Below are positions 6,028 through 32,905 of a stretch of 64,000 bases of DNA, piece by piece; within the stretch, counting starts at the first letter, position 1, and every line of letters starts with the position of its first letter. Location of the stretch: the NCBI GenBank assembly GCA_965261135.1, contig OZ253443.1:2192521-2256520 (forward strand). The letters are read 5' to 3'. The notes beneath the pieces were generated by a model. That model worked only from the letters and a program-made list of their open reading frames with translations. It was not told the DNA's origin and did not search any database. The DNA is from Acidimicrobiia bacterium. Its GTDB lineage: Bacteria; Actinomycetota; Acidimicrobiia; Spongiisociales; ZC4RG35. The position numbers and the translations under genes are program-made.

Positions 6028-6084
6028 TGGCAGCTCCTTTCAAAGATCGTTAGGGATATCGTAACCCCCCGGTGAAGCCACCCC

Positions 6085-6288: not shown

Positions 6289-6396
6289 CTTGTGCTCTAT
6301 GTACCCTGCGGGGCTAACGAGAGCCTAGGACTGTCACATCCATGAAATAACATGGCTGTAAGTTACACTGCGTTCAAGCTGAAGGAGGTCTCAGGG

Positions 6397-6642
6397 ATGA
6401 CAACCACGATTTCACGCGATTGGCAATCTGAACGGCTCATGGATGAAGATCGGCTTCATCCTGATGAAGAGCGAATGTTGCGTGTGTTTGGCCAGCGCAA
6501 ACTAATACCCAATATGGGAGAGTTGCTGGAAGAACTCGGAGAACCTAAGATGAGTCATGCCGATGCCCATGTTGCCGTATGCAACCTAGCCATTAAGGGT
6601 CACGTCGCCTTCTCATTCGAAGGATATCGCCTTATCTCCTAA
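6397..6642 (+). CDS. Small acidic hypothetical protein (82 aa), translationally coupled to the downstream dGTPase-family gene
   Basis: Strong RBS aaggagg 8 nt upstream of the ATG at 6397. Stop TAA overlaps the next start (TAATG at 6640-6644). Low-GC codon usage matches the downstream gene. No TM segment and no known motif. The ORF track's longer 6352 start lacks an RBS. Confidence 0.55.
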   Translation: MTTTISRDWQSERLMDEDRLHPDEERMLRVFGQRKLIPNMGELLEELGEPKMSHADAHVAVCNLAIKGHVAFSFEGYRLIS

Positions 6643-7961: not shown

Positions 7962-8316
7962 CAAGGCCCCTTTGTGGAGGTAGGGCCGCCGGAGGGAAGT
8001 GTGCGAAACAATGGAGAATGGCTAATCCATATCGTTGGGAAGCAGCATAATTTCCTGAGGAGGACGCAGCAAGTCACTGGAAGGAGACTCGGAAGCGGGC
8101 CCGCCAGAAAGCTCTGTTAGGGTGGGAGCCAGAGCCCAGCAAATGAGGGCCAACGGGGTGGTGCGATCCAGGTCTACATGGAGAACGTCGGCGGCACCAT
8201 GCCACTCTTTGTCGGCTAGGGAACCGCAGTAATAGCTACCGAGATCTACTGGCGTTATAACGGCCCGAGGATAGCCGTTCAGCCTCTATCCAGCCGAAAA
8301 GGTATCGACAATTGCG

Positions 8317-8676
8317 TTAGGAGCGGCGAAGCAGCAGAAACACGTAGGACAAGGCGATAAGAGGAATAACCGAGAAGACGAGCGGCAGCCACGGGTCGCC
8401 TTTGGTGAGACCCGTCCCGATTGCCAGATAGAGAAATACATCGGCGGCTATGTTGAGCGTCAGCAATGCGAGGCTGGCCTTGATCAGTTTCTTCGACCGG
8501 TTTCGGCCCATTACCAATATGACAAGTAGCACAGCCGCCGCCGGATGAACACCGACCAAGATCAGCCGTTCCCACCACTGGCCGCCATCCGCAAAGCTGC
8601 CGACCAAGGCCGTAAAAGCAACGATGAACATCTGCACCCAGGCGAGGATGCGGAGCAGGATCAGGAATCTAGTCAT
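8317..8676 (-). CDS. Small integral membrane protein (4 TM helices), hypothetical
   Basis: 119 aa, four hydrophobic segments, ends LLLRRS. Intermediate GC (about 55 %). Confidence 0.5.
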   Translation of the reverse strand: MTRFLILLRILAWVQMFIVAFTALVGSFADGGQWWERLILVGVHPAAAVLLVILVMGRNRSKKLIKASLALLTLNIAADVFLYLAIGTGLTKGDPWLPLVFSVIPLIALSYVFLLLRRS

Positions 8677-8732
8677 TTTTTCGTCCTATCAAATGGTAAC
8701 GATGGGCCCACAAAGGTTGTTCAGCATGCCCT

Positions 8733-16015: not shown

Positions 16016-17470
16016 TCAGAGATAGATAGCCGATTCGACCAGATTGAGGAGGGGCTGGGGGAAAATGCCCATAACCAAGGTGAAGGTGGTCGCCACGCCC
16101 AGCGCCCAGAAGGTAGGCCGGTCACATAGCACCGGATCGTCGTTGGTGGGAGCCTGCATGTACATGATCACGATCACCCGCAGATAGAGATAGATGGCCA
16201 CCGCCGAGGCAAGCACCGCCACTACCACCAGCCATTCCAGGCCTCCCCTCCAAGCCTCGAGAAATACGCCCAGCTTGGCGACGAACCCGCTGGTGAGGGG
16301 GATGCCCGCCATCCCCAGGAGAGAGACCGACAAGACCAGCGCCAGGAAGGGCGAGCGACGGTAAAGCCCCCGATAATCGGAGAGATCCGACCCCGAGGAG
16401 ACCGCTCCTCCCAGCACCGAGATCACCGAGAACGCTGCCACCAACTGGACCGTGTAGACCGCCAGATAGAACCAGACCGAGGATGATCCCTGGGCGCCGG
16501 ATGCGAGACCGGCGAGAATGAACCCGGCGTGAGCCACCCCCGAATAGGCCAGCAGGCGACGGATATCCACCGAGATGATGGCCATCACCGCTCCCACCAC
16601 CATCGACAGGGCGGCGATTCCCGCCACGACCGGCGCCCAGTCCACCCGAAAGCTCTCGAAACCGGTTAGAAGCACTCTGGACAGCGCCGCGAATCCGCCC
16701 ACTTTGGCCACCGCCGCCATATAGCCCACTATTCCCGCCGGGGCGCCCTGGTAGACATCAGGCGCCCACACATGGAAGGGGGCGGCCGCCACCTTGAAGG
16801 AAAGCCCCGCTGTCAACAAGCCGATTCCCACCAGGAGAACCGCCGGAGAGACCAAGAGGTTCCGGCTGAGGAACGACCCGATAGCCACCAGGCCCAGCGA
16901 GCCCGTCCCCGCGAACACCAACGCCGCTCCGTAGATGAACACCGCCGATGCCACCGCTCCCAACAGCAGATATTTGAGGGCCGCCTCGTCGGAACGCACT
17001 CCGTCCCCAGCGATCCCAGCCAGGATATAGAGGGAGATCGATCCCATCTCAAGTCCCAGGAACATCATCACCAGATTCTGAGAAGCGGCCATCAGGATAA
17101 AGCCGGCCGAGGCCAACAGCACCAACGCCACTCCCTCCGCCGCCCGGTTCCCCAAGTGTGCAAACAGGCTGCGGCCGGCCGACATCGCCAGGATGGAGAC
17201 CACCAGCACCACCAGGCGGGCCAGCGCGGCCGGGCGGTCGAAGATGAGCATCGACCCAAAGATCGGCTCTGCTCCGGGCGTCGCAACGATCCACTGCCAG
17301 ACACCCAGGGCCAGCGCGACCAGGATGATTACCAGAGAGGATCCCCACAAAACCCGCACCCCTGGCCTCTTCTGCACATCCAACAGCAACAGCCCCACCG
17401 CCCCCAGCACCAGCACCAGTTCGGGGGCCAGCGCCGCCCAGGCGATCTCAGGAATGGCGTTGGAGATCAC
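16016..17470 (-). CDS. nuoN: NADH-quinone oxidoreductase subunit N
   Basis: 484-aa polytopic antiporter-like subunit. Last gene of the nuoH-N run. 4-nt overlap with nuoM. Confidence 0.9.
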   Translation of the reverse strand: MISNAIPEIAWAALAPELVLVLGAVGLLLLDVQKRPGVRVLWGSSLVIILVALALGVWQWIVATPGAEPIFGSMLIFDRPAALARLVVLVVSILAMSAGRSLFAHLGNRAAEGVALVLLASAGFILMAASQNLVMMFLGLEMGSISLYILAGIAGDGVRSDEAALKYLLLGAVASAVFIYGAALVFAGTGSLGLVAIGSFLSRNLLVSPAVLLVGIGLLTAGLSFKVAAAPFHVWAPDVYQGAPAGIVGYMAAVAKVGGFAALSRVLLTGFESFRVDWAPVVAGIAALSMVVGAVMAIISVDIRRLLAYSGVAHAGFILAGLASGAQGSSSVWFYLAVYTVQLVAAFSVISVLGGAVSSGSDLSDYRGLYRRSPFLALVLSVSLLGMAGIPLTSGFVAKLGVFLEAWRGGLEWLVVVAVLASAVAIYLYLRVIVIMYMQAPTNDDPVLCDRPTFWALGVATTFTLVMGIFPQPLLNLVESAIYL

Positions 17471-19014
17471 GACTCACCGTCCTGAGTCGCCGAGACGAAC
17501 ACATCCGCCAGCCGCCCCGGCGAGGGCGCCTGGTAGTCGGTGGTCTGCTCGATACGGTCGAGAATCGCTTCCACGGAGGGAGCGGTCCGGTCCAAGAGGA
17601 TGCCGGGATAGAGTCCCAGCAGCAGCACCAGAGCCGCCAAGGGCGCCAGCACCGCTATCTCTTTGGGAGAGAGGTCTACCAGCTTGCGGTTTTCGGCTCG
17701 CGTCAGGGGACCGGTGAACACCCGCTGGTAGGCCCACAACATATAGATGGCGGCCAGCACCACCCCGAAGGCGGCCACCACCGCCAAGGCCGGAAGGGAG
17801 GGGAAGCTCCCCACCAGCACCAGGAATTCTCCCACAAAGCCGTTGAGGCCGGGCAGGCCGATGGAAGCGAAGGCCATGAACAGGAAAAACCCGGCCATGA
17901 TCGGCGCCGGAGTGGCCAGGCCCCCGAAATCGCTGATCTGTTTGGTGTGGCGGCGGTCATAGAGCATCCCCACCAGCAAAAAGAGCGCCCCGGTGGTCAG
18001 ACCGTGGTTGACGTTCTGGATGACCGCGCCCTGCAGGCCGGCGGAGGTGAGGGCGAAAATCCCCAGCACCACGAACCCGAGATGGCTGACCGACGAGTAG
18101 GCAACCAGCTTCTTGAGGTCGGGCTGGACGATGGCCACTACCGCTCCGTAGATGATCCCCACCACCGCCAAGACGGCAAGGACCGGGACCAGGGAGACCG
18201 TAGCCTCGGGAAAGAGGGTGAGATTGAACCGCAGCAGTCCGTAGGTTCCCAGCTTCAGGAGCACCCCGGCCAGGAGCACCGAGCCGGCGGTGGGCGCTTC
18301 CACATGGGCGTCGGGAAGCCAGGTGTGGAAGGGAAACAGGGGCACCTTGATCGCAAACGCCAAAGCAAAGGCGCCGAATAGCCACATTTGGGCAGTGGGC
18401 GAAATATCCAGGGCCAACAGGGCCAGATAGTCGAAGCTGAGCGCTCCCTCCGGCGTCTGGGAGGCATGCATAACCGCCAGGGCGATGATCCCCGCCAGCA
18501 AAAGCGCAGAGCCGAAAGCGGTGTAGATGAAGAACTTGACCGCCGCGTACACCCGGCGCTCTCCTCCCCATACCCCGATGATGAGGTACATGGGAACCAG
18601 GATCACCTCGAAAAAGACGAAGAACAACAAGAGATCCAGGGCCAGGAAGCTCCCTATCAAACCCGTCTCCAAAAAGAGCATCGCCACCACGAACGCCTTG
18701 CGCCGGTGAGAGATGGAGTCGGAGACCGCCAGGCTGAGCGGGAACAGAATGGCAGTGAGCGCCACCATCCCCAGGGAGATCCCGTCCACGCCCAGTTGCC
18801 ATGACACTCCCCACGGCTCCCACCAGACCACCTTCTCCACCATTTGGAAGGAGGCCTCGCCCTTCTCGAAGGAGAAGAACACCGCGCCCGCCAACCCCAG
18901 CGGCGCCACCGAGAGGGCCATGCCCAACGGCAGGTGAAGCTCCCGGCGACGGGCCGGAATGAGAGAGATCACCAGCGCCCCCAGGAGCGGCGTCAGCACC
19001 AGTAGGGTCAGCAT
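17467..19014 (-). CDS. nuoM: NADH-quinone oxidoreductase subunit M
   Basis: 515 aa, Mrp-antiporter-like TM core. Position between nuoL and nuoN. Confidence 0.9.
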   Translation of the reverse strand: MLTLLVLTPLLGALVISLIPARRRELHLPLGMALSVAPLGLAGAVFFSFEKGEASFQMVEKVVWWEPWGVSWQLGVDGISLGMVALTAILFPLSLAVSDSISHRRKAFVVAMLFLETGLIGSFLALDLLLFFVFFEVILVPMYLIIGVWGGERRVYAAVKFFIYTAFGSALLLAGIIALAVMHASQTPEGALSFDYLALLALDISPTAQMWLFGAFALAFAIKVPLFPFHTWLPDAHVEAPTAGSVLLAGVLLKLGTYGLLRFNLTLFPEATVSLVPVLAVLAVVGIIYGAVVAIVQPDLKKLVAYSSVSHLGFVVLGIFALTSAGLQGAVIQNVNHGLTTGALFLLVGMLYDRRHTKQISDFGGLATPAPIMAGFFLFMAFASIGLPGLNGFVGEFLVLVGSFPSLPALAVVAAFGVVLAAIYMLWAYQRVFTGPLTRAENRKLVDLSPKEIAVLAPLAALVLLLGLYPGILLDRTAPSVEAILDRIEQTTDYQAPSPGRLADVFVSATQDGES

Positions 19015-19024
19015 CTGCGGTTAC

Positions 19025-20926
19025 TCACACTCCGCCCCTCACCAAAAGCCAGGCCAGCAGCGCCACCAGGCCCAACGCGAACCACAGCCCATACTGGCGG
19101 ATCAGCCCGCTTTGCGCAGGGCGGATCATGGTTCCCGTCGCCCTGACCAGCCGGGCCACGCCGTTAACCGCCCCGTCCACCACCTTCAAATCCAGCCGGA
19201 AGGCGGCCTGTTCGGCGAGACGACGGCCGGGAGCGACCAGCATCGCCCCATAGATGTCATCCACCCGATAGGCGTTCTCCCACCATTCCCACACTCTGCC
19301 GAATCCCGATTGGAAGCGACGCCAGGCCTCCGAGGGCCGGTGATAGGCGAAAAAGGCCATACCGGCCCCGACCGCGCCGGCCGCCACCGCCACGGCGGCC
19401 AACACCAGGACAAGGATCACCCCCTCGGGCGGATGACCGAGCGTCACTCCTTCGAAGGAAGGCTCCAGAAAGTGCTCGAGTCCCAGCCGGAAGGGAGTGT
19501 TGACCAAACCTCCAGCCACCGACAGCACGGCCAGGACGATCAGGGGAAAGGTCATGGAGCGGGGGGACTCGTGAGGGACAACCCCCTCGGGCCAGCGGGG
19601 CTTGCCCAGAAACACCATCACGAACTGACGCATCATGTAAAAGGCGGTGAGCAGGGCGGTTACCAGCCCCACGAGCCACAGCGCGGTGAACCATCCGCCC
19701 TGGTTGAACACAACGCCCAAGATTTCGTCCTTCGACCAGAATCCCGCCAGCGGAGGGAAACCGGCGATGGCCACCACCCCCACCCCCATGGTCACGAAGG
19801 TAACGGGCATGGCCTTCCGAAGACCCCCCATCTCCCCCATGTCCTGGCGGCCCCCCATGGCATGGATCACCGAACCGGCCCCGAGAAACAGGAGAGCCTT
19901 GAAAAAGGCGTGCGTCATCAGGTGGAACACGCCCGCCACATAGGCCGTCGCCCCCACCGCCAGGAACATGTAACCCAACTGGCTGATGGTGGAGTAGGCC
20001 AGCACCCGTTTTATATCGGACTGGGCAATGGCGATGGTCGCCGCCCACAAGGCGGTCAGGGCTCCCACCGCGGCCACCACCCCCGAGGCGACGGGCGCCA
20101 ACTCGAAGATCGGGGCGGAGCGGGCGATCACATACACCCCGGCGGTGACCATCGTGGCGGCGTGAATAAGCGCCGAGACCGGCGTAGGACCCTCCATGGC
20201 ATCGGGCAACCACACATAGAGAGGAATCTGCGCCGATTTCCCGATCGCCCCGGCCGCCAGCATCAGCCCGATTAGCGTGGGCGTCCACCCGGTCAATTCA
20301 TCGGCGGCCCGGTCGAACACGCCGGAGTAGGACAAAGTCCCGAAGGCGCTGAAAATCAGCATCAGGGCTATGAGAAACCCGAAATCGCCGATCCGGTTCA
20401 CCACGAACGCCTTCTTTCCCGCCGAGGCGGCGGAGGGACGGGTGAACCAAAACGAAATCAGGAGATAAGAGCAGAGGCCCACCAGTTCCCAGCCCACGAA
20501 CAACATGGCAAAGTTCCCGGCCAGCACCAGAGTGAGCATCGAGGCGGTGAACAGGTTGAGATAGGTGAAGAACCGGGAGAAACGGGGATCTCCTTGCATG
20601 TATCCCAGCGAATAGATGTGAATCAGCGAACCCACTCCGGTGACCACCAGGGTCATCAGGGCCGAGAGCGGATCCCAGGCGATCTCGAAGGATGCCCCCA
20701 CCGCCGGCATCCACTCCCACAGAATGGACTGGGAGGGATGGCCCGCCCCGGTGAAGAAGGGCACTGCGGCGACCGCCGCCACCGCAAACGCGGCCAGCGA
20801 AGCGGCGCAGGCCAGGTATCCGGCACGGGGCTCTCCCACCCACCGGCCCGCGAAGTGCAGCAGCACCGCCCCCCCGAGGGGAAGGGCGATCACCAGCCAC
20901 AGCGCCTCGGTCGGAAGCTCGATCAT
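19025..20926 (-). CDS. nuoL: NADH-quinone oxidoreductase subunit L
   Basis: 633 aa, antiporter-like core plus long C-terminal helix region. Order nuoK-L-M. Confidence 0.9.
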
Positions 20927-21234
20927 CCCCGGAGCGCCGCCAACTCATCGACCGAAGCGGTCTCTCGTCTCCTGAATATGGCGACGATGATCGCCAGTCC
21001 CACCACTACCTCGGCGGCGGCGACCACCAGTACGAAGAAGACCGCAACCTGCCCGTCAAGCACACCTGCCGCCCGACCGGCGGCCACGAAAGTGAGGTTG
21101 ACAGCGTTGAGCATCAACTCCACGCACATGAACATCACCAGGGCGTTGCGCCTGATCAGGACCCCGGTCATCCCCAGGACGAACAGGACGGCGGCCAGGG
21201 TCATATACCAGCCCGGGGTGACGGCCGGCATCAC
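20923..21234 (-). CDS. nuoK: NADH-quinone oxidoreductase subunit K
   Basis: 103 aa, 3 TM, conserved Glu residues in TM helices. Confidence 0.9.
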
Positions 21235-21764
21235 TCCTCCGCCGGCGTATCGCCGGACCGCCGATGAAATGCCAGAGCGATAGCCCCCACCGCGGCGATG
21301 GTCAGCAACAGGGCGGTCACTTCCACCCCCAGGACCCAGGTGGTGAAAAGCTCTTCTCCCAGCGCCTGGACCGTGCCGTTGGGGATCTCGGCCGCCCCCG
21401 TCGAGACGGGGGTCCAGGAGAAACGGCCCCGCGACACCAACGCCGCCGCGCCCAGGGCCACCGCGGTGGCCAGCCCGACCACCAGCTTGCGCTGGAAGGG
21501 AATGGTCTCGGAGGTGTCCTCGGTGCGGTCAACGCCGATGAACATGATCACAAAGAGAAACAGGGTCAACACCGCCCCGGCGTACACCACCACCTGCACC
21601 GCGGCTACCAGATGGGCCAGGTTGACCACGTAGATCACCGCCAGGGACACCAGGGCACCCAACAGCCCCAGGGCCGAGCGGACCGGGTTTCGAGCCAGCA
21701 CCACCGTGACGGCCCCGGCCAATGTCCCCGCCCCCATCAGCACGAAAATCACCAGTTCAACCAT
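21231..21764 (-). CDS. nuoJ: NADH-quinone oxidoreductase subunit J
   Basis: 177 aa, 5 TM, position between nuoI and nuoK. Confidence 0.85.
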
Positions 21765-22395
21765 CCGGCGAGTCCCTGGTCTCCTGATCCGGCTCGGGTG
21801 CCCAGGAAGCGGGGCCGGGAGTGGGCTGCCACATCATCTCGCCCTCATAGGCGGCCACCCCGCCCGGGGAAGTGGCTCGGAGCCACCCGTCGGCGGCGTC
21901 CAGTTCGGACAAGTCGGCGAAAGGATCCTCCCGGTATATATGGGGAACCGACCCGTCCTCTGCCATCAATAGCTCGTCCTTGGTATGGATGGCGTCGTTG
22001 CGGTTGGTCACCGACATCTCGAAAAGGTGGCTCATGGTGATGGCCTCGGTGGGACAGGCCTCCACGCACAGCCCGCAGAAGATGCAGCGCAGCATGTTGA
22101 TCTCATATACGTACCCGAAGCGCTCCCCGGGGCTCTGGGGATCATCGGGCGGGTTGTCGGCGCCTCGCACGTAGATGCAGCGGGCGGGACAGGCCCCGGC
22201 GCACAGCTCACACCCTATGCACTTCTCCATCCCGTCGGGATAGCGATTGAGAACGTGGCGGCCGTGGAACCGCACCGGCTTTTCCCGCATCTCGGAGGGA
22301 TAGCGGGTGGTGACGATGCCCCTTCCGAACAGGCCCCTCAGACCGATCGACCCGGTCACCTTGAAGCTTTTCCAGAATTCTCTCAGTATTCCCAT
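21757..22395 (-). CDS. nuoI: NADH-quinone oxidoreductase subunit I (2x[4Fe-4S] ferredoxin), with about 50-aa C-terminal extension
   Basis: Two CxxCxxCxxxCP motifs ([24 protein letters not shown]). Confidence 0.9.
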
Positions 22396-22402
22396 CTTTT
22401 CC

Positions 22403-23518
22403 TCACCCGCTGAACGGTAAACCGAAATGACGGAAGCCGATCACCACCGTGGAGATCACCAGCCACACCATCGACAAGGGAATCAGCCGCTTCCAACCCA
22501 GGGTCATCAACTGGTCGTAGCGCAACCGGGGAAGGGTGGCTCTCGTCCAGAAGAACACCACCACCAGCACGTAGCTTTTCGCCATCAGCCATACGACAGG
22601 AAGTATGGCCGAAACCCAGCCGGGCACAATCCCTTCCCAGACCGGGCCGTTCCATCCTCCCAAGAAGAGCGTGGCGGTAATAGCGCACATGGAGAAGATG
22701 TTGATGTACTCGGCCAAAAAGAACATGGCGAAGCGGATGCCCGAGTACTCGGTGTGGAATCCACCCACCAACTCCTGCTCGGCCTCCACCAAATCGAAGG
22801 GCGCCCGGTTGGTCTCCGCCAACGCCGCCAGGAAGAAGATCACAAAGGCCACGAATTGGGGAAAGATGTTCCAGCGGGGAATCAAGCTGATCACCGGGTC
22901 GAGGAAGGCGACAGATCCCGCCCAGGTTCCCGACTGTCTCTCCACGATCTCAGCCAGGGAGAGGGTTCCGCTCTCCGCGCCCGGCGCGGTGGCCGAGAAC
23001 ATCACCACCGCCACCATCGCCAAACCCATGGCCGCCTCATAAGAGATCGCCTGGGCGGTGGCCCGCACACCCCCCAGCAACGGGTATTTGGAACCCGACG
23101 ACCACCCGGCCAGCACCACCGCGTACACCGCCATGGACGACATGGCCAATATGAACAGGATCCCGATGTTGAGATCGGCCCCTTGGAGCGGCACCTGTCG
23201 GCCCGCAATCTCCAAGCCCGGACCGAGCGGGACCATCATGAAAATCAGGAAGGCGGGTATCACCGCCAGGAAAGGCGCCAGGAGATAGGCCCCCACATCC
23301 ACCCTCCGGGGAGTGATTTGCTCCTTGAAGAACAGCTTCATCCCATCAGCCAGGGTCTGGAGTATCCCCCACGGCCCCGCCCGGGCCGGGCCCACCCGGT
23401 TCTGCATATCCGCCAGAATTTTTCGCTCCAGCCAGATGTTGATAATGGTCAATACCAGCAACAGGGCGAACACCGCCACCACGCGGACGGCTATCAACAA
23501 CAGATCTACCCAGTCCAT
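22403..23518 (-). CDS. nuoH: NADH-quinone oxidoreductase subunit H
   Basis: 371 aa, 8-9 TM, NuoH/ND1 pattern. First gene of the cluster; no nuoA-G upstream. Confidence 0.9.
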
Positions 23519-23772: not shown

Positions 23773-25539
23773 TTGAATTCCGCCAGTATCCCCTCCGACC
23801 TGGATATTGCCCAAAGCGCCCAGGTCATCCCCATAACCGAGATAGCAGAACGGGTGGGGATCCAAACTGACGAACTGATCCCCTACGGCGCCGACAAGGC
23901 CAAGGTGCATCTCGACATTTTGAGCCGGATCCAGAACCGTCCCCGGGGTCGCTATGTGGACGTGACCGCCATCACCCCCACTCCCCTCGGCGAGGGCAAG
24001 ACCACCACCACCATCGGCCTTACCCAGGGCCTGGGAGCGAGGGGCCACAACGCCATGGCGTGCATTCGCCAGCCCAGCATGGGCCCTACCTTTGGCATCA
24101 AGGGCGGCGCGGCGGGGGGAGGCTACAGCCAGGTCATCCCCATGGAGGAGTTCAATCTCCATCTCACCGGGGATATACACGCCATCGGGGTTGCCCACAA
24201 TCTGGTGGCCGCCGCCATCGACGCCCGGTGGTATCACGAGGGGCGGCTCAGTGACGAACGCCTGGCCGAACGGGGGCTGAAACGCCTGGGGATCGACCAT
24301 GACCGCATCCTGTGGCGACGGGTGGTCGATGTGAACGACCGGGCGCTGCGCAATGTGGTGTTGGGGCTGGGCGGCCGGGCCGACGGGCGCCCGCGGGAGA
24401 GCGGATACGACATCACAGTGGCCAGCGAGTTGATGGCGATTCTCGCCCTGGTGGACGGGAAAGACTATGCCTCCGCCCTTCGAAACCTGCGCGAACGCTG
24501 CGGAAAGGTGGTGTTCGGCTCTTCACAGACCGGAGAGCCGCTCACCCTCGAAGACCTGGGAGCCGCGGGGGCGGTTACCGTGCTCTTGCGCGAAGCCCTC
24601 CACCCCACCCTGATGCAGACCCTGGAGGGACAGGGGGTATTCGTCCACACCGGCCCCTTCGCCAACATCGCCCACGGCAACTCGTCGGTGGTGGCCGACC
24701 GGATCGGTCTCCAACTCGCCGACTATGTGGTCACCGAGTCGGGATTCGGGGCCGACATGGGGATGGAAAAGTTCTTCAACATCAAGTGCCGGACCTCGGG
24801 ACTGATTCCGGACTGCGTTGTGCTGACCGCCACGGTGCGCGCGCTCAAAAACCAGGGAGGAGGCCCGCGGGTTACGCCGGGGAAGCCTCTTCATCCCTCC
24901 TATACCGAGGAGAACCTGCCGCTCCTGAGAGCGGGCGTGGCCAATCTCCAAGCCCACCTGGAAACCATTCGAGAGTTTGGAATTCCGGCGGTGGTGGCGG
25001 TCAACATCTTCCCCACCGATACCCAGCGGGAGATCGAATACATACAGTCGGCGGCCGTGGAAGCCGGCGCTCACTCCGCGGTCCCTGCCACTCACTGGGC
25101 GGAAGGCGGCGCCGGGGCAGGCCAACTGGCCGAGGTGGTGGAGGACGCCTGCGCCGTCTCCGGGAATTTTCGCTTCATCTACTCGCTGGAGCAACCCCTC
25201 AAAGAGAAAATCGCCCGGATCGCCCGCCAGGTGTACGGAGCGGAGGATGTCTCCTACTCCGCCCTCGCCGATCGCCAGCTCGCCCAGTACGAGCAGGCCG
25301 GCTTCGGAAACCTGCCGATCTGCATGGCCAAAACCCATCTCTCAATCAGTCACGACCCCAGCCTCCGGGGCGCTCCCCGGGGATATACCCTCCCCGTCCG
25401 GGAAGTACGGGCCTCGGTTGGCGCCGGGTTTATCTATCCGCTGGTCGGCGCGGTTCGGACCATGCCCGGGCTCTCGGTGACCCCCGCCTTCCTCAATGTG
25501 GACATCGACTCGGCGGGAGAGGTGGTGGGCCTCTTCTGA
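23773..25539 (+). CDS. fhs: Formate--tetrahydrofolate ligase
   Basis: 588 aa. N-terminal SDLDIAQSAQVIPITEIAERVGI...YGADKAKV and TPLGEGKTTTTIGL P-loop are characteristic of FTHFS. TTG start at 23773 with aggagg 7 nt upstream. Confidence 0.95.
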   Translation: MNSASIPSDLDIAQSAQVIPITEIAERVGIQTDELIPYGADKAKVHLDILSRIQNRPRGRYVDVTAITPTPLGEGKTTTTIGLTQGLGARGHNAMACIRQPSMGPTFGIKGGAAGGGYSQVIPMEEFNLHLTGDIHAIGVAHNLVAAAIDARWYHEGRLSDERLAERGLKRLGIDHDRILWRRVVDVNDRALRNVVLGLGGRADGRPRESGYDITVASELMAILALVDGKDYASALRNLRERCGKVVFGSSQTGEPLTLEDLGAAGAVTVLLREALHPTLMQTLEGQGVFVHTGPFANIAHGNSSVVADRIGLQLADYVVTESGFGADMGMEKFFNIKCRTSGLIPDCVVLTATVRALKNQGGGPRVTPGKPLHPSYTEENLPLLRAGVANLQAHLETIREFGIPAVVAVNIFPTDTQREIEYIQSAAVEAGAHSAVPATHWAEGGAGAGQLAEVVEDACAVSGNFRFIYSLEQPLKEKIARIARQVYGAEDVSYSALADRQLAQYEQAGFGNLPICMAKTHLSISHDPSLRGAPRGYTLPVREVRASVGAGFIYPLVGAVRTMPGLSVTPAFLNVDIDSAGEVVGLF

Positions 25540-25563
25540 ATTCGCTCGAGGGTTGGATCGGCA

Positions 25564-25901
25564 TCAGCCGGCGCCGGAGGTAGCCTCAACCACCTGCACC
25601 AGCCGGTAGTCCAGCGAACTGGCGTCGGCCGGCGGGTCCTCGATTTCCGTTATCTCCACATCAAGGACATAGGACACCCCTTCGATGTGGGTGAACCCTT
25701 CGATGCCGTCGTAGAAAAACTCCCAATCGGCGTTCTCGGACTCCTTGACCAGCAGGCATTTGCGGGGCCGACGCCCACGCAGTCAACCACATCCGGGCCG
25801 ATCCACATCCGGACAACCCGACTCGACGACGTACCCGTCGAACAGGCGCCAAGGGCGAGCGCCAGGACGACAAGCACTGTCGTGAGTACCCGGGCCGCCA
25901 A
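25564..25901 (-). pseudogene. DUF4377-like lipoprotein gene disrupted by an apparent 1-nt frameshift near 25750
   Basis: The N-terminal part (signal peptide + lipobox LALGAC ... VDCVGVGPANAC) is in one frame. The C-terminal part (LLVKESENADWEFFYDGIEGFTHIEGVSYVLDVEITEIEDPPADASSLDYRLVQVV) is in the -1 frame and ends at the stop 25564-25566. Together they give the CVGVGP...C...DWEFFYDGIEGF pattern of DUF4377 proteins. Confidence 0.5.
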
Positions 25902-26071
25902 AATGCGCTCCTCTCAGAAGTTATTCACGTGATTGCGACCAAATTTATCAACAATCGAATCCAAGCCCTCAACCCCAAAATCCCGGCCTTTTGTCACCAG
26001 TCCGTTTTACAGATTGCTAAAATATCGCCAACGGAACAAAGTTCGCCCGTACAACTCAAGGAGAGTCAACT

Positions 26072-27973
26072 ATGGGAAAAAAGACCCGGCTGACCCATCC
26101 GCTGGTGCGCCAGAACGGCGTACTTCGACAAGCCACGTGGGCCGAGGCTCTTGCCACTGCGGCCCGCGGCCTGGGTGAGGTGCGCGACGCGCACGGCGGA
26201 GAAGCGATAGGGCTGTTTTCCTGCTCCAAAGCCACCAACGAGACCAACTTCTTGGCACAGAAGTTCGCACGGGTGGTGCTGGGCACCAATAACGTAGATT
26301 CCTGTAACCGGACCTGACACGCTCCCAGCGTCGCCGGTCTGGCGGCTGTTTTCGGAGCGGGAGGGGGAACCAGTTCCTATCAGGAGATGGATGACGCCGA
26401 TGTGGTGATCCTGTGGGGGTCGAACGCCCGGGCCGCCCATCCCATCTTTTTTCACCGGGTCATCCGGGCGGTCCGCCGCGGCGCCCGCCTGTTCTGCGTG
26501 GATCCTCGCCGAAGCGAGTCGGCGGAGTGGGCCGACCTGTGGCTGGGTATCGATGTCGGATCCGATATCGCCCTGTCCAACGCGGTGGCCCGCGAGATCC
26601 TGGCATGCGGGTTGGAGAATCGGGAGTTCATCGAGCGCGCCACCCTCAATTTCGAGGAATACGCCCAGAGCGTGGAGGGGTGGACCCTGGAGCGGGGCGA
26701 GGAGATAACCGGAGTTCCCGCCCATGCCATCCGCTCTCTGGCCCATGCCTATGCCAAGGCCGACCGCGCCCAGTTGTGCTGGACGCTGGGGATAACCGAG
26801 CACCACAACGCCACCGACAATGTGCTGGCTCTGATCAACCTGGCGCTGCTCTGCGGACATGTGGGTCGCTACGGGTCGGGACTGGTGCCCCTCCGGGGCC
26901 AGAACAATGTACAGGGAGGCGGCGACATGGGAGCGATCCCCAACAAGCTTCCGGGTTTCCAAGATGTGGAGTCAGACGAACTCCGCACCCCGTTCGAAGC
27001 CACCTGGAAGGCCCCCGTCCCTCCCCGCAAGGGTCTTCACCTCACCCAGATGTTCGAGGCGATGGAAGATGGTACTCTGCGCGCCCTGTACGTGATCGGA
27101 GAGAATCCCGCCCAATCCGAGGCCGATGTCAAAAGGGCCCGCCACCTGATGGAAGGCCTGGAATTCATGGTGGTTCAGGACATTTTCCTTACCCGCACCG
27201 CCCAAATGGCCGACGTTGTGTTCCCTGCCGCCGCCGACTGGTGCGAGGCGGAGGGAACGGTGACCTCGAGCGAACGGCGGGTCCAGCGGGTGCGCCCCGC
27301 CCTCCAACCTCCCGGGGAGGCCCGCACCGACTCCTCCATCATCTCCTCCCTGGCGGCCAGCATGGGACATGGTTGGGGCATGCCTTCCGCCGAGGAGGTG
27401 TGGGACGAACTGCGCAGCCTCTCTCCCATGCACCGGGGTATGGCCTACCGTCGCCTGGAAGACCACGGCGGCTTACAATGGCCCTGCTTCGACGAAGACC
27501 ATCCCGGTGAACTCTTCCTCCACTCCCGCCTGTGGGCAGACCCCCCAGTCGGCCCCCTCGCTCCCTTCTTCCCTGTGGAGTGGTTCCCGCCGGTCGACCG
27601 GCTGACCGAGGATTATCCCACCCGGCTCACCACCGGCCGCCACCTCGACTCCTACAACACGGGAGTGCAGAGCGGCGCCACCGACTCCCCGCTCCGGATC
27701 GGGGGAACCCTCGACATCTCACCCGAGGACTCCTCTACCTGGGCGATTTTGGAGGGAGAAGAAGTGCGGGTCACCTCTCGGAGAGGGTCGATCACCGTCC
27801 CCGCCCGGGTGGACGAGAGCCTCCGCCCCGGTTTGGTCTTTATGTCCGTTCACTTTCCCGAGCAGGCCGACATCAACCAACTGACCATCGAGGCCTGGGA
27901 TCCGAAGAGTGGCACCGCGGAGTTCAAGGCGACTGCCGTGCGGGTGGAAAAAGCACCGGCGCCGGTCGGGTAG
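26072..27973 (+). CDS. fdhA: Formate dehydrogenase catalytic (molybdo/tungstopterin) subunit; selenoprotein with in-frame UGA = Sec at codon 83 (26318-26320); lacks the usual N-terminal 4Fe-4S domain
   Basis: RBS aaggagag before the ATG at 26072. ...[41 protein letters not shown] aligns with E. coli FdhF ...[29 protein letters not shown]. ORF 26387..27973 is in the same frame (315 nt = 105 codons downstream). GGUCUG loop 18 nt after the UGA, as in the fdhF SECIS. Confidence 0.9.
26321..26365 (+). ncRNA. SECIS-like stem-loop immediately 3' of the UGA (cis element within the fdhA mRNA)
   Basis: UGA CAC GCU CCC AGC GUC GCC GGUCUG GCG GCU G ... GGAGCG. The outer stem CGCUCC/GGAGCG encloses an apical GCC-GGUCU-GGC hairpin. 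The GGUCUG apical motif and its 18-nt spacing from the UGA are the same as in E. coli fdhF. Confidence 0.6.
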
Positions 27974-27996: not shown

Positions 27997-29814
27997 ATGG
28001 ACCTTCGCTTTACAGAGTCCCAGCCCACCGCTGCTGAGCGGGAGGCAGTGGAGTCGGTCACCGGCCCAGGCGGCATCGAAAGCCACCGCCGGGTGCGGAC
28101 CGCCGCCAACCTGCGTATCTTCATGACCGGACGACAGAGCGTGGTGGATCGACGCCACCTCCTGCTGCCCGCCCTCGAGACCGTGCAATCCGAGATAGGG
28201 TGGGTCTCGGAAGGCGCCTTGATGCACATCTGTCGGGTTTTGTCCGTCCCTCCGGCCGAGGCGTGGGGGGTGGCTACCTTCTACTCCCTGATATCGGTCG
28301 ATCCCTCCCCGTCCGAGGTATGGCACATCTGCGACGATATTGTCTGCCGCCGCGCCGGCGCCCTGGAACTTATCGAGGGACTGGAAGCCGGGGGAGCGGA
28401 AGCTCCGAACGCCCGATGGGCGCGCTCGCCCTGTCTCGGACAATGCGACCTGGCGCCGGCGGCCTACATCCAGCGGGCCGGGGAAGACGACCTGGTAATG
28501 GTGGAAGTAGGCGCCTCCGAGCTGGGCGAATGGCCCAACAACACTTCTCTCTCGATGGCCAACGGCCGTTCGGCCAAACCCGCCATTCCCCAGTCCGGCC
28601 AACCCCATCTGCGGCTGCTGCGGCGGGTGGAGGTGGTGGATCCCGAATGCCTCGACTCCTACCTGGCCGCCGGTGGATACCAAGCCCTGGAAAAGGCGGT
28701 GGAGATGGGGCCGGAAGCGGTGAACGGAGAGATCAAGACCTCGGGCCTCCGGGGTCGGGGAGGAGCGGCGTTTCCCGCCTGGATCAAGTGGGAAGCAGTG
28801 GCCAACTCCCCCGAGCCGGTCCGCTATCTGATCTGCAACGCCGACGAGTCTGAGCCGGGCACCTTCAAGGACCGGGTTCTGATGGAGGACGATCCCTTCT
28901 CGGTAATTGAATCCATGACCCTCGCCGGATACGCGATCGGCGCCCGCCGAGGGTATCTCTACATCCGGGGGGAATATCCCCTGGCCACCGAACGGCTGCT
29001 GCGGGCGATGGACTCGGCGCGTCAGCGGGGCCTATTGGGAGACACCTCCGGAACCGGTGTCTCTTTCGATATCGAACTCCGCCGCGGCCAGGGCGCCTAC
29101 ATCTGCGGTGAGGAAACCGCCCTGATGAACTCCATCGAGGGTTTCCGGGGAGAGCCGCGCAACAAGCCCCCCTTCCCCACTGTCTCGGGGCTGTTCGGAA
29201 AGCCGACCGTCATCAACAACGTGGAGACCCTGTGCAATGTCCTCGACATCGTCACCGAGGGCGGAGAGGCCTTTGCCTCGATGGGAACCGCTCAGTCCAC
29301 CGGACCCAAACTATTCTGTCTATCGGGATCGGTCAACCGGCCAGGCGTCTACGAGGTGGAATTCGGCGCCACTCTCAGGGAGTTGATCGACCTGGCGGGA
29401 GGTTTGCCCGAGGGTCTGGAACCAAGGGCGATCCTGCTGGGCGGCGCGGCCGGTTCGTTCGTGCTCCCCGACCTCCTCGACATGCCACTCACTTTCGAGG
29501 CTGCCGTCGAGGCCGGGGTTTCGCTCGGATCGGGAGTGATAATGGTGTTCGACCAGCACACCGACTTCGGAGACATCCTCGCCCGCATCGCCGCCTTTTT
29601 TCGGGATGAGACCTGCGGGCAGTGCGTGCCCTGCCGGGTTGGTACTGTACGTATCGAAGAAGCGCTGGCGCGAATCCGCCGACGCCCCCGACCCGGAGAC
29701 CTGGAACTGATCACCGAAATCGACCTGGCCATGCGGGACGCATCTATCTGCGGCTTGGGACACACCGCCGCCATTGCCCTGCGATCCGCCCTCGACCTGG
29801 GACTGCTGAAATGA
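27997..29814 (+). CDS. NAD(P)-linked formate dehydrogenase diaphorase subunit: fused NuoE-like (2Fe-2S thioredoxin-fold) + NuoF-like (FMN/NADH-binding, 4Fe-4S) protein
   Basis: 605 aa. N-terminal NuoE-like Cys ligands (...CRVLSVP...). The NuoF-like domain has the GRGGAAFP glycine-rich FMN/NADH loop and a C-terminal CGQCVPCRVG 4Fe-4S motif. Confidence 0.85.
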   Translation: MDLRFTESQPTAAEREAVESVTGPGGIESHRRVRTAANLRIFMTGRQSVVDRRHLLLPALETVQSEIGWVSEGALMHICRVLSVPPAEAWGVATFYSLISVDPSPSEVWHICDDIVCRRAGALELIEGLEAGGAEAPNARWARSPCLGQCDLAPAAYIQRAGEDDLVMVEVGASELGEWPNNTSLSMANGRSAKPAIPQSGQPHLRLLRRVEVVDPECLDSYLAAGGYQALEKAVEMGPEAVNGEIKTSGLRGRGGAAFPAWIKWEAVANSPEPVRYLICNADESEPGTFKDRVLMEDDPFSVIESMTLAGYAIGARRGYLYIRGEYPLATERLLRAMDSARQRGLLGDTSGTGVSFDIELRRGQGAYICGEETALMNSIEGFRGEPRNKPPFPTVSGLFGKPTVINNVETLCNVLDIVTEGGEAFASMGTAQSTGPKLFCLSGSVNRPGVYEVEFGATLRELIDLAGGLPEGLEPRAILLGGAAGSFVLPDLLDMPLTFEAAVEAGVSLGSGVIMVFDQHTDFGDILARIAAFFRDETCGQCVPCRVGTVRIEEALARIRRRPRPGDLELITEIDLAMRDASICGLGHTAAIALRSALDLGLLK

Positions 29815-30809
29815 CCCGACCCAAAACAACCACCGCTCCTCACCAAACCGTCCAGTTGACCATTGACGGCGCACCGATGGAGGTCAAGGCGGACGCCACC
29901 CTTCTGGAAGCCTGTGAACAAATGGGGACCGCAATTCCCACCCTTTGTTATCTGGAGACCCTCACCCCGGTCAACGTGTGCCGGATCTGTGTGGTGGAGG
30001 TAGAACGGAGCCGCACACTGGTACCCGCCTGCTCGCGGATCGTCGAGGAGGGCATGGTGGTGAATACCGACTCGGAGCGGGTCCGGCACAGTCGGAAGAT
30101 GGTCCTGGAGTTCCTGGGCTCCTCGGTGGATCTTTCGCTGGCCGATGCCGAGGTCGGCGGGTGGATGGAAGAGTACGACGCCGACCCGACCCGCTACGGA
30201 GCCCCCGCCGAGCCCACCGCGGCCGGGGAACGGGACGGGAGGCATCCGGGGCATCATAATTCGGTCAGCGGTAAAACCGCTGAGGGAGTACACCAGCCCA
30301 CCAAGGTGGACAACACCCTCTATGTCCGCGACTATTCCCGCTGCATCCTCTGCTACAAGTGCGTGGAGGCGTGCGGGATCGATGCCCAGGGCACTTACGC
30401 CATAGCGGTGGCGGGCCGGGGCTTCGACGCCCGGATCTCCACCGAGATGGACCTTCCCCTGGGCGACGGCGCCTGTGTGTTCTGTGGCAACTGCATAGGA
30501 GTGTGCCCGACCGGCGCCCTTATGTTCCGCTCGGAATGGGAACTCCGGAAGGCGGATCTATGGGATCCCGAAGCGCAGTCTGTGACCCGGACGGTTTGCT
30601 CCTATTGCGGAGTCGGCTGCAACCTGGAGTTGCACACCCAGGACAACCGCATTGTCAAGGTCACCTCTCCCCAGGATCACGAGGTCACCAGCGGCCATCT
30701 GTGCATCAAGGGCCGGTTCGGCTACGACTACGTGCAGAGCCTGGGCGATGTGGACCAAAGCTCGATCGACGAGGTGCTGGCCGCCGCCCGCCGTCCCAAC
30801 CCCGAATAG
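29811..30809 (+). CDS. NuoG-N-terminal-like Fe-S subunit (2Fe-2S + 4Fe-4S clusters) carrying at its C-terminus the MopB-type 4Fe-4S domain that normally opens the FDH catalytic subunit
   Basis: ATG at 29811 overlaps the previous stop (ATGA). CRICVVEV... 2Fe-2S; CILCYKCVEACG and CVFCGNCIGVCP ferredoxin motifs; C-terminal CSYCGVGCNLELHTQDNRIVKV...GHLCIKGRFGYDY matches FdhF residues 8-55 (CPYCASGC...LCLKGYYGWDF). Confidence 0.8.
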   Translation: MTRPKTTTAPHQTVQLTIDGAPMEVKADATLLEACEQMGTAIPTLCYLETLTPVNVCRICVVEVERSRTLVPACSRIVEEGMVVNTDSERVRHSRKMVLEFLGSSVDLSLADAEVGGWMEEYDADPTRYGAPAEPTAAGERDGRHPGHHNSVSGKTAEGVHQPTKVDNTLYVRDYSRCILCYKCVEACGIDAQGTYAIAVAGRGFDARISTEMDLPLGDGACVFCGNCIGVCPTGALMFRSEWELRKADLWDPEAQSVTRTVCSYCGVGCNLELHTQDNRIVKVTSPQDHEVTSGHLCIKGRFGYDYVQSLGDVDQSSIDEVLAAARRPNPE

Positions 30810-30818
30810 CCGCGGCGC

Positions 30819-31661
30819 TCAGGCCGGAGCGGGGGCTTTTCGACGGAGGGAATCACGCAGCCGCGATCCTGTCAGGGCTACGAAGAACAGGGACACCGAG
30901 ATCAACACGATGGTGGCCGAGGCGGCCGTGGAAAAGCGATAGCTGATCACCAGACCACTGATCACCGAGAAGACCGCCAAAGCGGCAGAGACCGCCATCA
31001 CCAGCACCACCCGCCGAACCAGGATAATGGCCGTGGCCGGAGGCCCGATCAGCAGACCGAACACCAGGATAGCGCCTACTCCCTGAAACAGGACGACCAT
31101 CGTACCCGTGATGAGCGCCAACAGTGTCAGGTGAGCTATCCGAGGACGAAGGTCCATCATCTCGGCTTTGGCCTCATTGAAGGCGAGGGCCAGAAACGAC
31201 CGATACATCACAACCGATACCGCCATGGCAACCACCAGGCTCACCGCTTCCAACAGGATGCCGCCGCCGGTCACCCCCAGCAGGTCACCGAATAGAACCG
31301 CGGTGATCGAGACCGAAAAGCTGGAGGTCAGTGAAATCACCACCACTCCGAGGGACAGCATGCCCACGAACAGCAGCCCGATCCCGATGTCGGCGCTGAG
31401 CTTGGTGTGTTGGTGAACCTGATTGATCCCCCATACCATCACCACCCCAGCCACCAGCGCCCCCCACAGCGGATTGACTCCCGCCAGCAGGGCGATAGCG
31501 ACACCGGGAATAATCCCATGGGCAACCGCATCGCCCATGAAGGACATCCCCCGGATAACCACCCAGGTACCCACCACCGAGGTAAGTATCCCGGCCAGTA
31601 TCCCGGCCAGTAACGCCCGCTGCTGAAAAGCGAATTCAAACGGCTCCAACAGCCAGTCCAT
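30819..31661 (-). CDS. znuB: Metal (zinc/manganese) ABC transporter permease, ABC-3 family (ZnuB-like)
   Basis: 280 aa, 8-9 TM, ABC-3 permease pattern. Divergent from a Fur-family regulator gene across a Fur-type box. Confidence 0.8.
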   Translation of the reverse strand: MDWLLEPFEFAFQQRALLAGILAGILTSVVGTWVVIRGMSFMGDAVAHGIIPGVAIALLAGVNPLWGALVAGVVMVWGINQVHQHTKLSADIGIGLLFVGMLSLGVVVISLTSSFSVSITAVLFGDLLGVTGGGILLEAVSLVVAMAVSVVMYRSFLALAFNEAKAEMMDLRPRIAHLTLLALITGTMVVLFQGVGAILVFGLLIGPPATAIILVRRVVLVMAVSAALAVFSVISGLVISYRFSTAASATIVLISVSLFFVALTGSRLRDSLRRKAPAPA

Positions 31662-31702
31662 ACCATCTACTTTCTCGAATCGGATAAATATGCATCAGCG
31701 AT

Positions 31703-31717
31703 TGATAATCATTATCA
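31703..31717. promoter_or_regulatory. Fur-family (Zur) operator: perfect 7-1-7 palindrome TGATAATCATTATCA in the znuB / zur-znuC divergent promoter
   Basis: Read directly. Sits in the AT-rich 66-bp intergenic region between the znuB start (31661, minus) and the zur start (31728, plus). Matches the GATAAT-n-ATTATC Fur/Zur box architecture. Confidence 0.75.
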
Positions 31718-31727
31718 TATATGAACC

Positions 31728-32165
31728 ATGTTTGGACTCCACTCCAAAGTAGAAGAGAGTCTTCGCTCGCAGGGCATGCGCTATACCACCAACCGCAGGG
31801 CGCTCGTCGAGGCGCTGGACAACACCGCAGGCCCTCTCACCGTCGAAGAGCTCTACCAGGTTACGGAGGCGCGCATCCCTTTTTCCTCCATCTATAGGGA
31901 CGTTCGCGTGTTGACCGAATCGCAGGTGCTCGCCTCTCACCACAGCGCCGATCGGTCCAACCGCTTCGAATTGGCCGAATGGCTGACGGGACATCATCAC
32001 CACTTGGTGTGCATGCAGTGCATGGCCATCTCCGACATCTCCCTGACCCCTGAAACCGAGTACCGCCTCTCCCGGTTGGCGGAGAACGCAGCCACCGACA
32101 CCGGGTATCGGGTAGCCGGCCACACCCTGGAGATCGAGGGCCTGTGCCCGAACTGCCAGACATGA
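31728..32165 (+). CDS. zur: Fur-family transcriptional regulator (zinc uptake regulator, Zur-like)
   Basis: 145 aa. HHHHLVCMQC and CPNC metal-binding Cys pairs. N-terminal winged-helix DNA-binding region. Co-located with znuB/znuC and a Fur box. Confidence 0.8.
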   Translation: MFGLHSKVEESLRSQGMRYTTNRRALVEALDNTAGPLTVEELYQVTEARIPFSSIYRDVRVLTESQVLASHHSADRSNRFELAEWLTGHHHHLVCMQCMAISDISLTPETEYRLSRLAENAATDTGYRVAGHTLEIEGLCPNCQT

Positions 32166-32905
32166 GAGTACCCGAGCAGGCCATCGAGAACGCCATCGAA
32201 GCGGAAGGACTGGAGCTCCGCTACGGCTCGAACATAGTCTTGGAACCCTCATCTTTCACCGCGCCCATGGGAGCAATCACCGCCCTGATCGGGCCGAACG
32301 GTGCCGGAAAGTCCACCCTGCTTCACTCCCTGGTCGGCTTGATAAGCCCCTCTGGCGGACGGATCACCGTCTTGGGAACCTCCCCTCAAAGAGCCCGGAA
32401 ACAGGTTGCCTATGTCATCCAGTCCAAGCAGATCAACCAGTCTTTGCCGCTCACGGTGGCCCAGGTTGTGGCCATGGGCCGCTATCCGAACCGGGGAATG
32501 ATCCGACCATTGAGGATCGATGACCGCGCCCGGGTTCAAGAGGCCATGGAGAGGATGGAAATCACCGATTTGTCCAACCGCCACCTCACTGAGCTGTCGG
32601 GTGGACAACGACAGCGGGTTTTCATGGCTCAGGGAATCGCCCAGGATCATCTTGTGATGCTTCTGGACGAGCCACTCACCGGCCTCGATATCATCTCGGC
32701 GGAGGCAGTGGACAGAACCCTCCACCAAGAGAAGGCCCACGGCTGCGCGGTTTTGGTATCCACCCACGACCTGGGAGAAGCCGGCAGCGCCGATCATGTG
32801 CTGCTGCTGGGGGAGAGGAGAGTGATCAGCGGGCCCCCTCCGGAGGTGCTGACCACCGACAACCTCCTTTCGGCTTTCGGGGCCGGGCTGATGCACATCC
32901 ACTGA
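32144..32905 (+). CDS. znuC: Metal ABC transporter ATP-binding protein (ZnuC-like)
   Basis: Walker A GPNGAGKST, signature LSGGQRQRV, Walker B LLDEPLTGLD. More likely start is the ATG at 32162 forming an ATGA overlap with the zur stop. Confidence 0.85.
   Translation: MPELPDMRVPEQAIENAIEAEGLELRYGSNIVLEPSSFTAPMGAITALIGPNGAGKSTLLHSLVGLISPSGGRITVLGTSPQRARKQVAYVIQSKQINQSLPLTVAQVVAMGRYPNRGMIRPLRIDDRARVQEAMERMEITDLSNRHLTELSGGQRQRVFMAQGIAQDHLVMLLDEPLTGLDIISAEAVDRTLHQEKAHGCAVLVSTHDLGEAGSADHVLLLGERRVISGPPPEVLTTDNLLSAFGAGLMHIH

Follow-up and report, generated by a model that had tools for sequence, protein, structure and literature searches.

A 64,000-nucleotide stretch of an Acidimicrobiia genome (contig OZ253443.1; this whole stretch is called the window here) carries two open reading frames (ORFs) on the forward strand, 26072–26317 (81 aa) and 26387–27973 (528 aa), which lie in the same frame and are joined via a single TGA codon. 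The question raised by this locus is whether translation ends at that codon or whether the two ORFs are parts of a single formate dehydrogenase (FDH) gene in which UGA is read as selenocysteine (Sec), as an original prediction made from the DNA alone had proposed. From the comparisons described below, we put at roughly 93% the probability that 26072–27973 is one gene for the catalytic subunit of an FDH with a molybdenum- or tungsten-bis(pyranopterin guanine dinucleotide) (Mo/W-bisPGD) cofactor, and that its UGA encodes Sec.

Translated as one frame, 26072–27973 contained 633 codons and one internal stop, in agreement with the original prediction, whose reading of the protein at the junction was also recovered on retranslation. 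The in-frame TGA, the predicted codon for Sec82, occupies 26315–26317 (+ strand) and not 26318 as first given, a 3-nt shift that arose because the listed end of an ORF includes its stop codon, and it is followed by a C (UGA-C context); the stretch 26318–26386 between TGA and ATG 26387 holds 23 sense codons, one more than the 22 counted earlier. The complete coding sequence (26072–27973, + strand, 633 codons including Sec82) starts at ATG 26072, a start also called in relatives, with a Shine-Dalgarno-like AAGGAGAG read from the sequence 6 nt upstream (26058–26065, + strand), and it stops at TAG 27971–27973. The splitting of the gene by the ORF track was seen again in public gene calls on relatives, which divide the gene into the same 81-aa and 528-aa ORFs. 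Since TGA is the usual stop in the window, terminating 35 of 51 genes, the genetic code is standard and no reassignment is involved. A scan of the window for in-frame TGA codons with coding signal on both sides yielded no other selenoprotein candidate and, apart from this gene, three ordinary gene junctions.

The predicted product was analyzed with domain and family models. Pfam placed Molybdopterin at residues 6–428 and Molydop_binding at residues 518–621 of the catalytic subunit and found no Molybdop_Fe4S4 domain on it. The NCBIfam model of the FDH alpha subunit, TIGR01591, was covered from model position 50 to 672 at 650.9 bits, which falls just below the equivalog cutoff of 666.25 bits because the first 50 model positions are missing, and the protein is not a single chain with the full set of domains; against NF041513 (formate_DH_Act), the window protein scored 168.8 bits, the cutoff being 1400. 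It is 38% identical over 634 residues to E. coli FdhH (residues 61–686), and in this alignment codon 82 falls on Sec140, His83 on His141 and Arg274 (in PLRGQNNVQG) on Arg333. The UGA therefore stands at the canonical Sec position of FdhF/FdhA, as had been claimed, with His141 and Arg333 kept. The broader description of the product as an FdhF/FdhA selenoprotein held for the Sec position, the His and the Arg; it did not hold for the chain as a whole, which is not the canonical single one and in which the N-terminal Fe4S4 domain is absent. The closest solved structures are all FDHs, namely, 7QV7, 7BKB (a methanogen Fdh), 1AA6, 7VW6/7E5Z and 6TG9.

Conservation of the TGA was followed in three sets of sequences. 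One genome per GTDB species was scanned, yielding 80 loci with 66–96% identity, nearly all of them labelled as Acidimicrobiia metagenome-assembled genomes (MAGs) and many marine or sponge-associated; two close relatives were taken from ENA, and a metagenome scan seeded with proteins carrying Cys at the site (Cys type) gave 80 further loci. TGA was present at the exact codon in all 80 genome loci, in both ENA relatives and in the window. The pooled set of 170 loci showed a Sec/Cys pairing at this position, with TGA in 156 loci (130 distinct 51-mers), Cys in 13 and CGA in 1, and the TGA-type sequences reached down to about 61% protein identity. A protein search returned, among the matches listed, ORFs of 528–560 aa with 72–99% identity that start just past the TGA position, as well as full-length proteins of 627–663 aa with 62–65% identity from Streptomyces, Nonomuraea, Saccharopolyspora, Thermopolyspora and other genera; the full-length homologs spanning the site, again among the matches listed, had Cys in 95 cases and Arg in 1.

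The part of the gene upstream of the TGA behaved as the part downstream of it. Its 81 codons were open in 148 of the 150 TGA loci with enough sequence, and the median identity to the window was 63% upstream versus 69% downstream. Because the upstream codons are open and similarly conserved, both halves of the gene must be under purifying selection. Taken together with the standard code, the conserved TGA and the open frame form a pattern that cannot be explained by a pseudogene, an assembly error or codon reassignment.

Two observations on these loci deserve mention. The single CGA (Arg) locus, from a soil metagenome (L092:413-463, P0013, 69% identical), keeps a perfect GTCGTC-GGTCT-GACGAC hairpin; its codon either changed from Sec to Arg very recently or was misread in sequencing, the contig being 2.2 kb long. 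Together with two Cys-type genes in which GGTCTG is retained, this variant suggests that Sec was lost recently. Six near-identical TGA-type operons (L046, L050, L054, L058, L075 and L082) are labelled Marinacidobacterales, Vicinamibacteria or Gammaproteobacteria, and these odd labels could be explained by MAGs that were mis-binned or mislabelled, or else by an operon that moved horizontally.

A selenocysteine insertion sequence (SECIS) would be expected to follow a recoded UGA, and a candidate bacterial SECIS hairpin was located at 26320–26359 (+ strand), as judged by the minimum free energy (MFE) fold, comparative pairing and an invariant GGTCTG. In the MFE fold, the lower stem is formed by 26320–26325 and 26354–26359, the upper stem by 26330–26335 and 26341–26346, and the apical loop GGUCU by 26336–26340 (all on the + strand). 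GGTCTG lies at 26336–26341, 18 nt after the TGA, and thus the earlier claim of a GGUCUG apical hairpin placed as in E. coli fdhF was borne out for both motif and register. When folded singly, the 48-nt stretch gave z = −1.8, with 11 of 200 shuffles as good, while the 17-nt apical hairpin (26330–26346) gave z = −3.15, a value equaled by none of 200 shuffles. As single-sequence z-scores are unconvincing in GC-rich coding sequence, comparative data were used for the element.

The covariation alignment comprised 71 distinct TGA-type sequences and later 130. In the 71 sequences, the upper stem was 98.6% paired, with compensatory changes between GC and AU and between CG and UA. The alignment-column pair 19:29 was changed from GC to AU in 11 sequences, altering Ala to Thr and Ala to Val in the protein, and a compensatory change was found at 18:30 as well. 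Among the 130 sequences, pair 18:30 was CG in 125, GC in 4 and UA in 1; pair 19:29 was GC in 111, AU in 11 and GU in 6; pair 20:28 was CG in 85, UG in 38 and UA in 7; and pair 17:31 was UG in 83 and UA in 46. For the 71 sequences, none of 500 shuffles reached the observed covariation score or paired fraction, and pairing, which was 93% in register, fell to 34–64% when the 3′ partner was slid by 1 to 3 columns. U17 is invariant but occupies the middle position of a Val codon, and it can pair with G/A31.

The loop itself separates the two types of gene. GGTCTG was invariant in 130 of 130 TGA-type sequences and present in 2 of 10 Cys-type sequences (Fisher p = 1.5e-11), which indicates nucleotide-level selection on a G/U-containing apical loop such as that of E. 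coli with its G23 and U24. All four synonyms were used at other Gly codons of the TGA-type alignment, and Cys-type orthologs have GGC, GGG or GGT at the loop Gly codon. At the Cys-type loci (L086-L091, position 6259 or 4603, and others), a strong hairpin of −22 to −32 kcal/mol with a GGCCTT, GGCCTC or GGGCTG loop can still fold; Cys-type hairpins that lack GGUCUG look like decaying SECIS elements left after Sec-to-Cys replacement. On these grounds we regard the hairpin at 26320–26359 as a probable fdhF-type SECIS that would be bound by SelB.

Several results weigh against this reading of the locus. The window hairpin by itself is not strongly above shuffled sequences (z = −1.1 to −1.8), and its lower stem is less secure than the upper one, being 87.8% paired with pair 6:45 mostly unpaired. 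Cys-type genes also fold a hairpin at the place of the SECIS, and part of the pairing potential therefore stems from the coding sequence itself. No Rfam family reached its gathering score on the window; the best sub-threshold match was SECIS_3 at 26312–26370 (16.1 bits, E = 0.42, gathering score 63), and it was not counted as evidence. Finally, selA, selB, selD and tRNA-Sec were absent from the 64-kb window and from the 10 kb or less around the gene in the 80 genome loci and the two ENA relatives. In particular, ARAGORN detected no tRNA, and hence no tRNA-Sec, in the window; Pfam found no SelA, SelB or SelD among about 57 window ORFs; tblastn with the three E. coli proteins against the window and L001-L082 returned EF-Tu-like matches only, located beside tRNA clusters; and tRNA-Sec was not found in the flanks of 82 Acidimicrobiia-type loci.

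The Sec machinery was encountered in other genomes that carry the TGA-type gene or belong to the same class. In one locus (L126:3-1897), selD, tRNA-SeC (716-808, anticodon tca) and selB directly precede a TGA-type fdh operon, from which they are divergently transcribed; selB is upstream of the TGA-type fdh in L154 and L121, selD in L146, and selD together with selA in L147. These sel genes were confirmed with TIGR00474/TIGR00475/TIGR00476. Closer to the window, the FDH of L010 is 88% identical and shares the TGA, and this contig (MPNA01000002.1) belongs to 'OM1 bin76', the MAG of an Acidimicrobiia bacterium living in symbiosis with the sponge Aplysina aerophoba, which was scored SelA=2, SelB=1 and SelD=1 (Slaby et al. 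2017, Table S4). The original prediction had named the absence of selA, selB and selC as a finding that would refute it, and in this close relative such an absence is not what was reported (Slaby et al. 2017). In addition, all 84 of 84 complete genomes of Actinomarina, a genus of another order in the same class, have selA, selB, selC and selD (2026 preprint). By analogy with these relatives, the organism of the window would be expected to possess a Sec machinery.

Four other explanations were weighed against Sec insertion. In the first, UGA is a true stop, and the 81-aa polypeptide and a 528-aa polypeptide started at ATG 26387 assemble as a split enzyme; the family already tolerates one split, with its Fe4S4 domain in trans, and an ATG is indeed available 23 codons past the TGA. 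We consider this very improbable, since the 23 codons between the ORFs, among them that of the catalytic His (HAPSVAGL...), are conserved as coding sequence, the Met at 26387 gives way to Ala in other lineages, for which gene callers pick differing starts, and an enzyme without residue 82 would deprive Mo/W of its protein ligand, a role established for FdhH. The second takes the hairpin for an intrinsic terminator or an attenuator, or for a mere consequence of encoding SVAGLAAV; UGA would then be decoded independently of SelB by a near-cognate tRNA for Cys or Trp. A terminator scan does flag 26330–26346 followed by TGTTTTC, and Cys-type genes likewise fold at the same place. This explanation too is very improbable: the intrinsic terminator was rejected because the T-run after 26330–26346 is not conserved, reading GGTCTTC or AGTGTTC in other loci; GGT-CTG is frozen in TGA-type genes only; the stem is preserved by compensatory changes that even alter amino acids (Ala to Thr with Ala to Val); and sel genes and tRNA-Sec co-localize with TGA-type fdh.

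The third explanation is a pseudogene, in which a nonsense mutation struck a Cys-type FDH and left the two ORFs as relics. That gene callers report two ORFs, that the window is without Sec machinery and that Cys-type orthologs exist would all fit such a history. It is effectively refuted by the recurrence of TGA across 130 distinct sequences, the most divergent at about 61% protein identity, with no frameshifts and with both halves conserved, by the freezing of synonymous sites of the loop in TGA-type genes only, and by the presence of SelA, SelB and SelD in the relative that shares the TGA. The least probable of the four is a sequencing or assembly error for TGC or TGT, for although one base change gives Cys and metagenome assemblies are the source of many related sequences, TGA recurs in independent assemblies from many studies and platforms, and the linked GGTCTG signature parts TGA-type from Cys-type genes.

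The Fe4S4 domain missing from the Sec-containing subunit was found two genes downstream. The gene at 27997–29814 (+ strand) encodes a NuoE-NuoF fusion (2Fe-2S thioredoxin-like, flavin mononucleotide (FMN)/NADH-binding and 4Fe-4S domains; Pfam, and NCBIfam nuoF_fam/NuoE), a predicted diaphorase subunit, and 29811–30809 (+ strand) encodes a NuoG-like Fe-S subunit with Fer2_4, Fer4_Nqo3 and, at its C terminus, Molybdop_Fe4S4 (FS0) according to Pfam. Residues 261–310 of this last product matched TIGR01591 positions 1–50 and contain the CxxCxxxC...C cluster motif VCSYCGVGC...LCIKG, while the rest of the protein is NuoG/HoxU-like. With these positions of the model on a separate protein, the usual long alpha subunit of NAD-linked metal-containing FDHs is here broken at the junction of its Fe4S4 and Mo domains. 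The NuoE-NuoF gene follows the catalytic gene in all 80 genome loci, and the NuoG-like gene stands in the same order in 74 of the 80; the catalytic-NuoEF-FeS order was kept across the genome loci (80/80) and also in the Cys-type operon of Thermopolyspora flexuosa. As in NAD+-dependent metal-containing FDHs, the catalytic gene is accompanied by genes for an FMN diaphorase of NuoE/NuoF type and for a NuoG-like Fe-S module. The enzyme is probably soluble and NAD(H)-linked.

We infer the following course of events for Sec insertion, SelB binding, the metal, the NAD specificity and the physiological direction. UGA 26315–26317 would not be read as a stop; the hairpin at 26320–26359 would present its GGUCU loop 18 nt past the UGA and recruit SelB-GTP-Sec-tRNA(Sec) to the ribosome, and Sec would be inserted at residue 82. 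There it would serve as a ligand of Mo/W beside the catalytic His83, with Arg274 conserved. The proximal [4Fe-4S] domain would be supplied in trans by the C terminus of the NuoG-like protein, and electrons would pass through the Fe-S clusters of that protein to the NuoE-NuoF fusion and on to NAD+. With the adjacent fhs, for formate-tetrahydrofolate ligase, the enzyme would most likely oxidize formate released from 10-formyl-tetrahydrofolate (THF), the last step of one-carbon (C1) oxidation, and the reverse role, CO2 reduction towards the THF pathway, is possible.

The fhs gene is located at 23773–25539 (+ strand; Pfam FTHFS E = 1.4e-243, and NCBIfam). It occurs within the flanks of 49 of the 80 genome loci and lies 65 nt upstream of fdh in a close relative (L001). 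In the window, the two genes are separated by a spacer of ~530 nt (25540–26071) with an AT-rich part at about 25905–26057; no Rfam motif was found in it, including no molybdenum cofactor riboswitch, and a small minus-strand ORF there is called as a 77-aa DUF4377 protein in a 99% relative (L002). On the opposite strand from fhs, at 16016–23518 (− strand), lies a nuoH-I-J-K-L-M-N block without nuoA-G upstream of nuoH, where fhs is located instead; complex I genes are therefore split in this clade. Docking of the FDH on such membrane-arm proteins was considered and rejected as a general feature, because nuoH-N adjacency is limited to 9 of the 80 genome loci, all of the close clade; the adjacency is a local accident of synteny. 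Directly after the fdh operon, 30819–32905 encodes a Zn/Mn-type uptake system, with an ABC-3 permease, a FUR-family regulator and an ABC ATPase. The Cys-type operon of Thermopolyspora is likewise followed by genes for ZnuA, ABC_tran and ABC-3, making this a conserved neighborhood. Far from these genes, GC content drops to 0.53 at 6001–8700, compared with ~0.63 elsewhere, around an HD/HD_assoc (dGTPase-like) gene at 6642–7961, and this low-GC stretch may be acquired DNA.

The FDH alpha subunit is the most widespread bacterial selenoprotein, found in 822 organisms (Peng et al. 2016). That makes the mechanism textbook knowledge, and the finding is chiefly of practical value. The selenoprotein is real but ordinary; mild surprises come only from the split alpha chain and from the prevalence of the Sec form in environmental homologs. 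Public protein entries of this clade, among the matches listed, are all cut to the ORF after the TGA (528–540 aa), and metabolic reconstructions of these Acidimicrobiia, among which are sponge symbionts, therefore carry a broken FDH and miss its selenium requirement. Since current Rfam models do not detect the element, the 130-sequence alignment of the actinobacterial fdhF-type SECIS could seed a covariance model.

The proportion of TGA-type genes among the homologs recovered (156 of 170 loci), most of them environmental, suggests that uncultured Actinomycetota use Sec in this enzyme far more often than one would judge from the cultured Cys-type genomes. A wider proposal can be offered tentatively, and as a whole we think it rather unlikely: that the Fe4S4-less TGA-type subunit, the NuoEF fusion and the NuoG-like subunit make up a distinct, biochemically uncharacterised class of Se-dependent, NAD-linked FDH with its proximal cluster in trans, and that the Sec form is the rule among environmental Actinomycetota (marine and sponge Acidimicrobiia, soil lineages), the Cys form of cultured actinomycetes being the exception. 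If this were true, selenium availability would be a hidden control on C1/formate oxidation in abundant uncultured groups, and the SelB-binding loop, nearly identical to its E. coli counterpart, would indicate that the fdhF-SECIS-SelB module is ancient or has been shared horizontally.

To place the enzyme among known systems, we compared it with five of them. It resembles E. coli FdhH (FdhF, Sec140; PDB 1AA6/1FDO) in its 38% identity, in the aligned Sec, His and Arg and in the UGA-C context, and its hairpin resembles the E. coli fdhF SECIS (TGACACGGCCCATCGGTTGCAGGTCTGCACC) in having GGUCUG at nt 22–27 counted from the U of UGA and encoding the same Gly-Leu. FdhH differs in possessing its own N-terminal [4Fe-4S] domain and in belonging to the formate hydrogenlyase complex, whereas the window encodes that domain on a separate polypeptide, with NuoE/F/G-like partners. 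The hairpins differ too: the window-type loop is 5 nt long and closed by C-G, and U17, which is bulged in the minimal SelB-binding hairpin of E. coli, can here pair with G/A31. The FdhF of the Thermoanaerobacter kivui hydrogen-dependent CO2 reductase (HDCR; 7QV7), a cytoplasmic FdhF-type protein with Sec, is the closest solved sequence (E = 4.9e-149); its hydrogenase filament partner is not of NuoEF type, and it keeps its own Fe4S4 domain, the match starting at residue 62. Mycobacteria supply another Sec-containing FDH in Actinomycetota, which is their sole selenoprotein, with selABCD present (PMC13449736), but that enzyme, of the respiratory FdoG/FdnG type and about 1064 aa, belongs to a different branch.

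The orthologous Cys-type operons of cultured actinomycetes (for example Thermopolyspora flexuosa, and also Streptomyces, Nonomuraea and Saccharopolyspora) are 62–65% identical, likewise Fe4S4-less and of the same gene order; their products are annotated as 'NAD-dependent formate dehydrogenase catalytic subunit' or 'molybdopterin oxidoreductase family protein'. They differ in having TGT/TGC in place of TGA, in having lost GGUCUG in 8 of 10 cases and in having fdhD after the operon; among the window ORFs scanned, none showed an FdhD-NarQ domain. Rhodobacter capsulatus FdsABG (6TG9) and Methylobacterium extorquens FoDH1 (7VW6/7E5Z) match the catalytic subunit with E values of about 1e-120 and share its NuoG-like Fe-S module and NuoE/NuoF-type diaphorase; the NuoE-NuoF fusion resembles the FoDH1 beta subunit. 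These enzymes have an active-site Cys, a single alpha chain of about 960–990 aa that fuses the NuoG-like, Fe4S4 and Mo domains, and an FdhD/FdsC accessory gene in the operon, whereas in the window the break in the alpha chain falls between its Fe4S4 and Mo domains, the genes run catalytic-NuoEF-FeS and Sec is the predicted ligand. Thus, at the level of recoding the gene is like E. coli fdhF, and at the level of the enzyme it belongs with the NAD-linked FDHs of the FdsA/FoDH1 type, with its alpha chain split.

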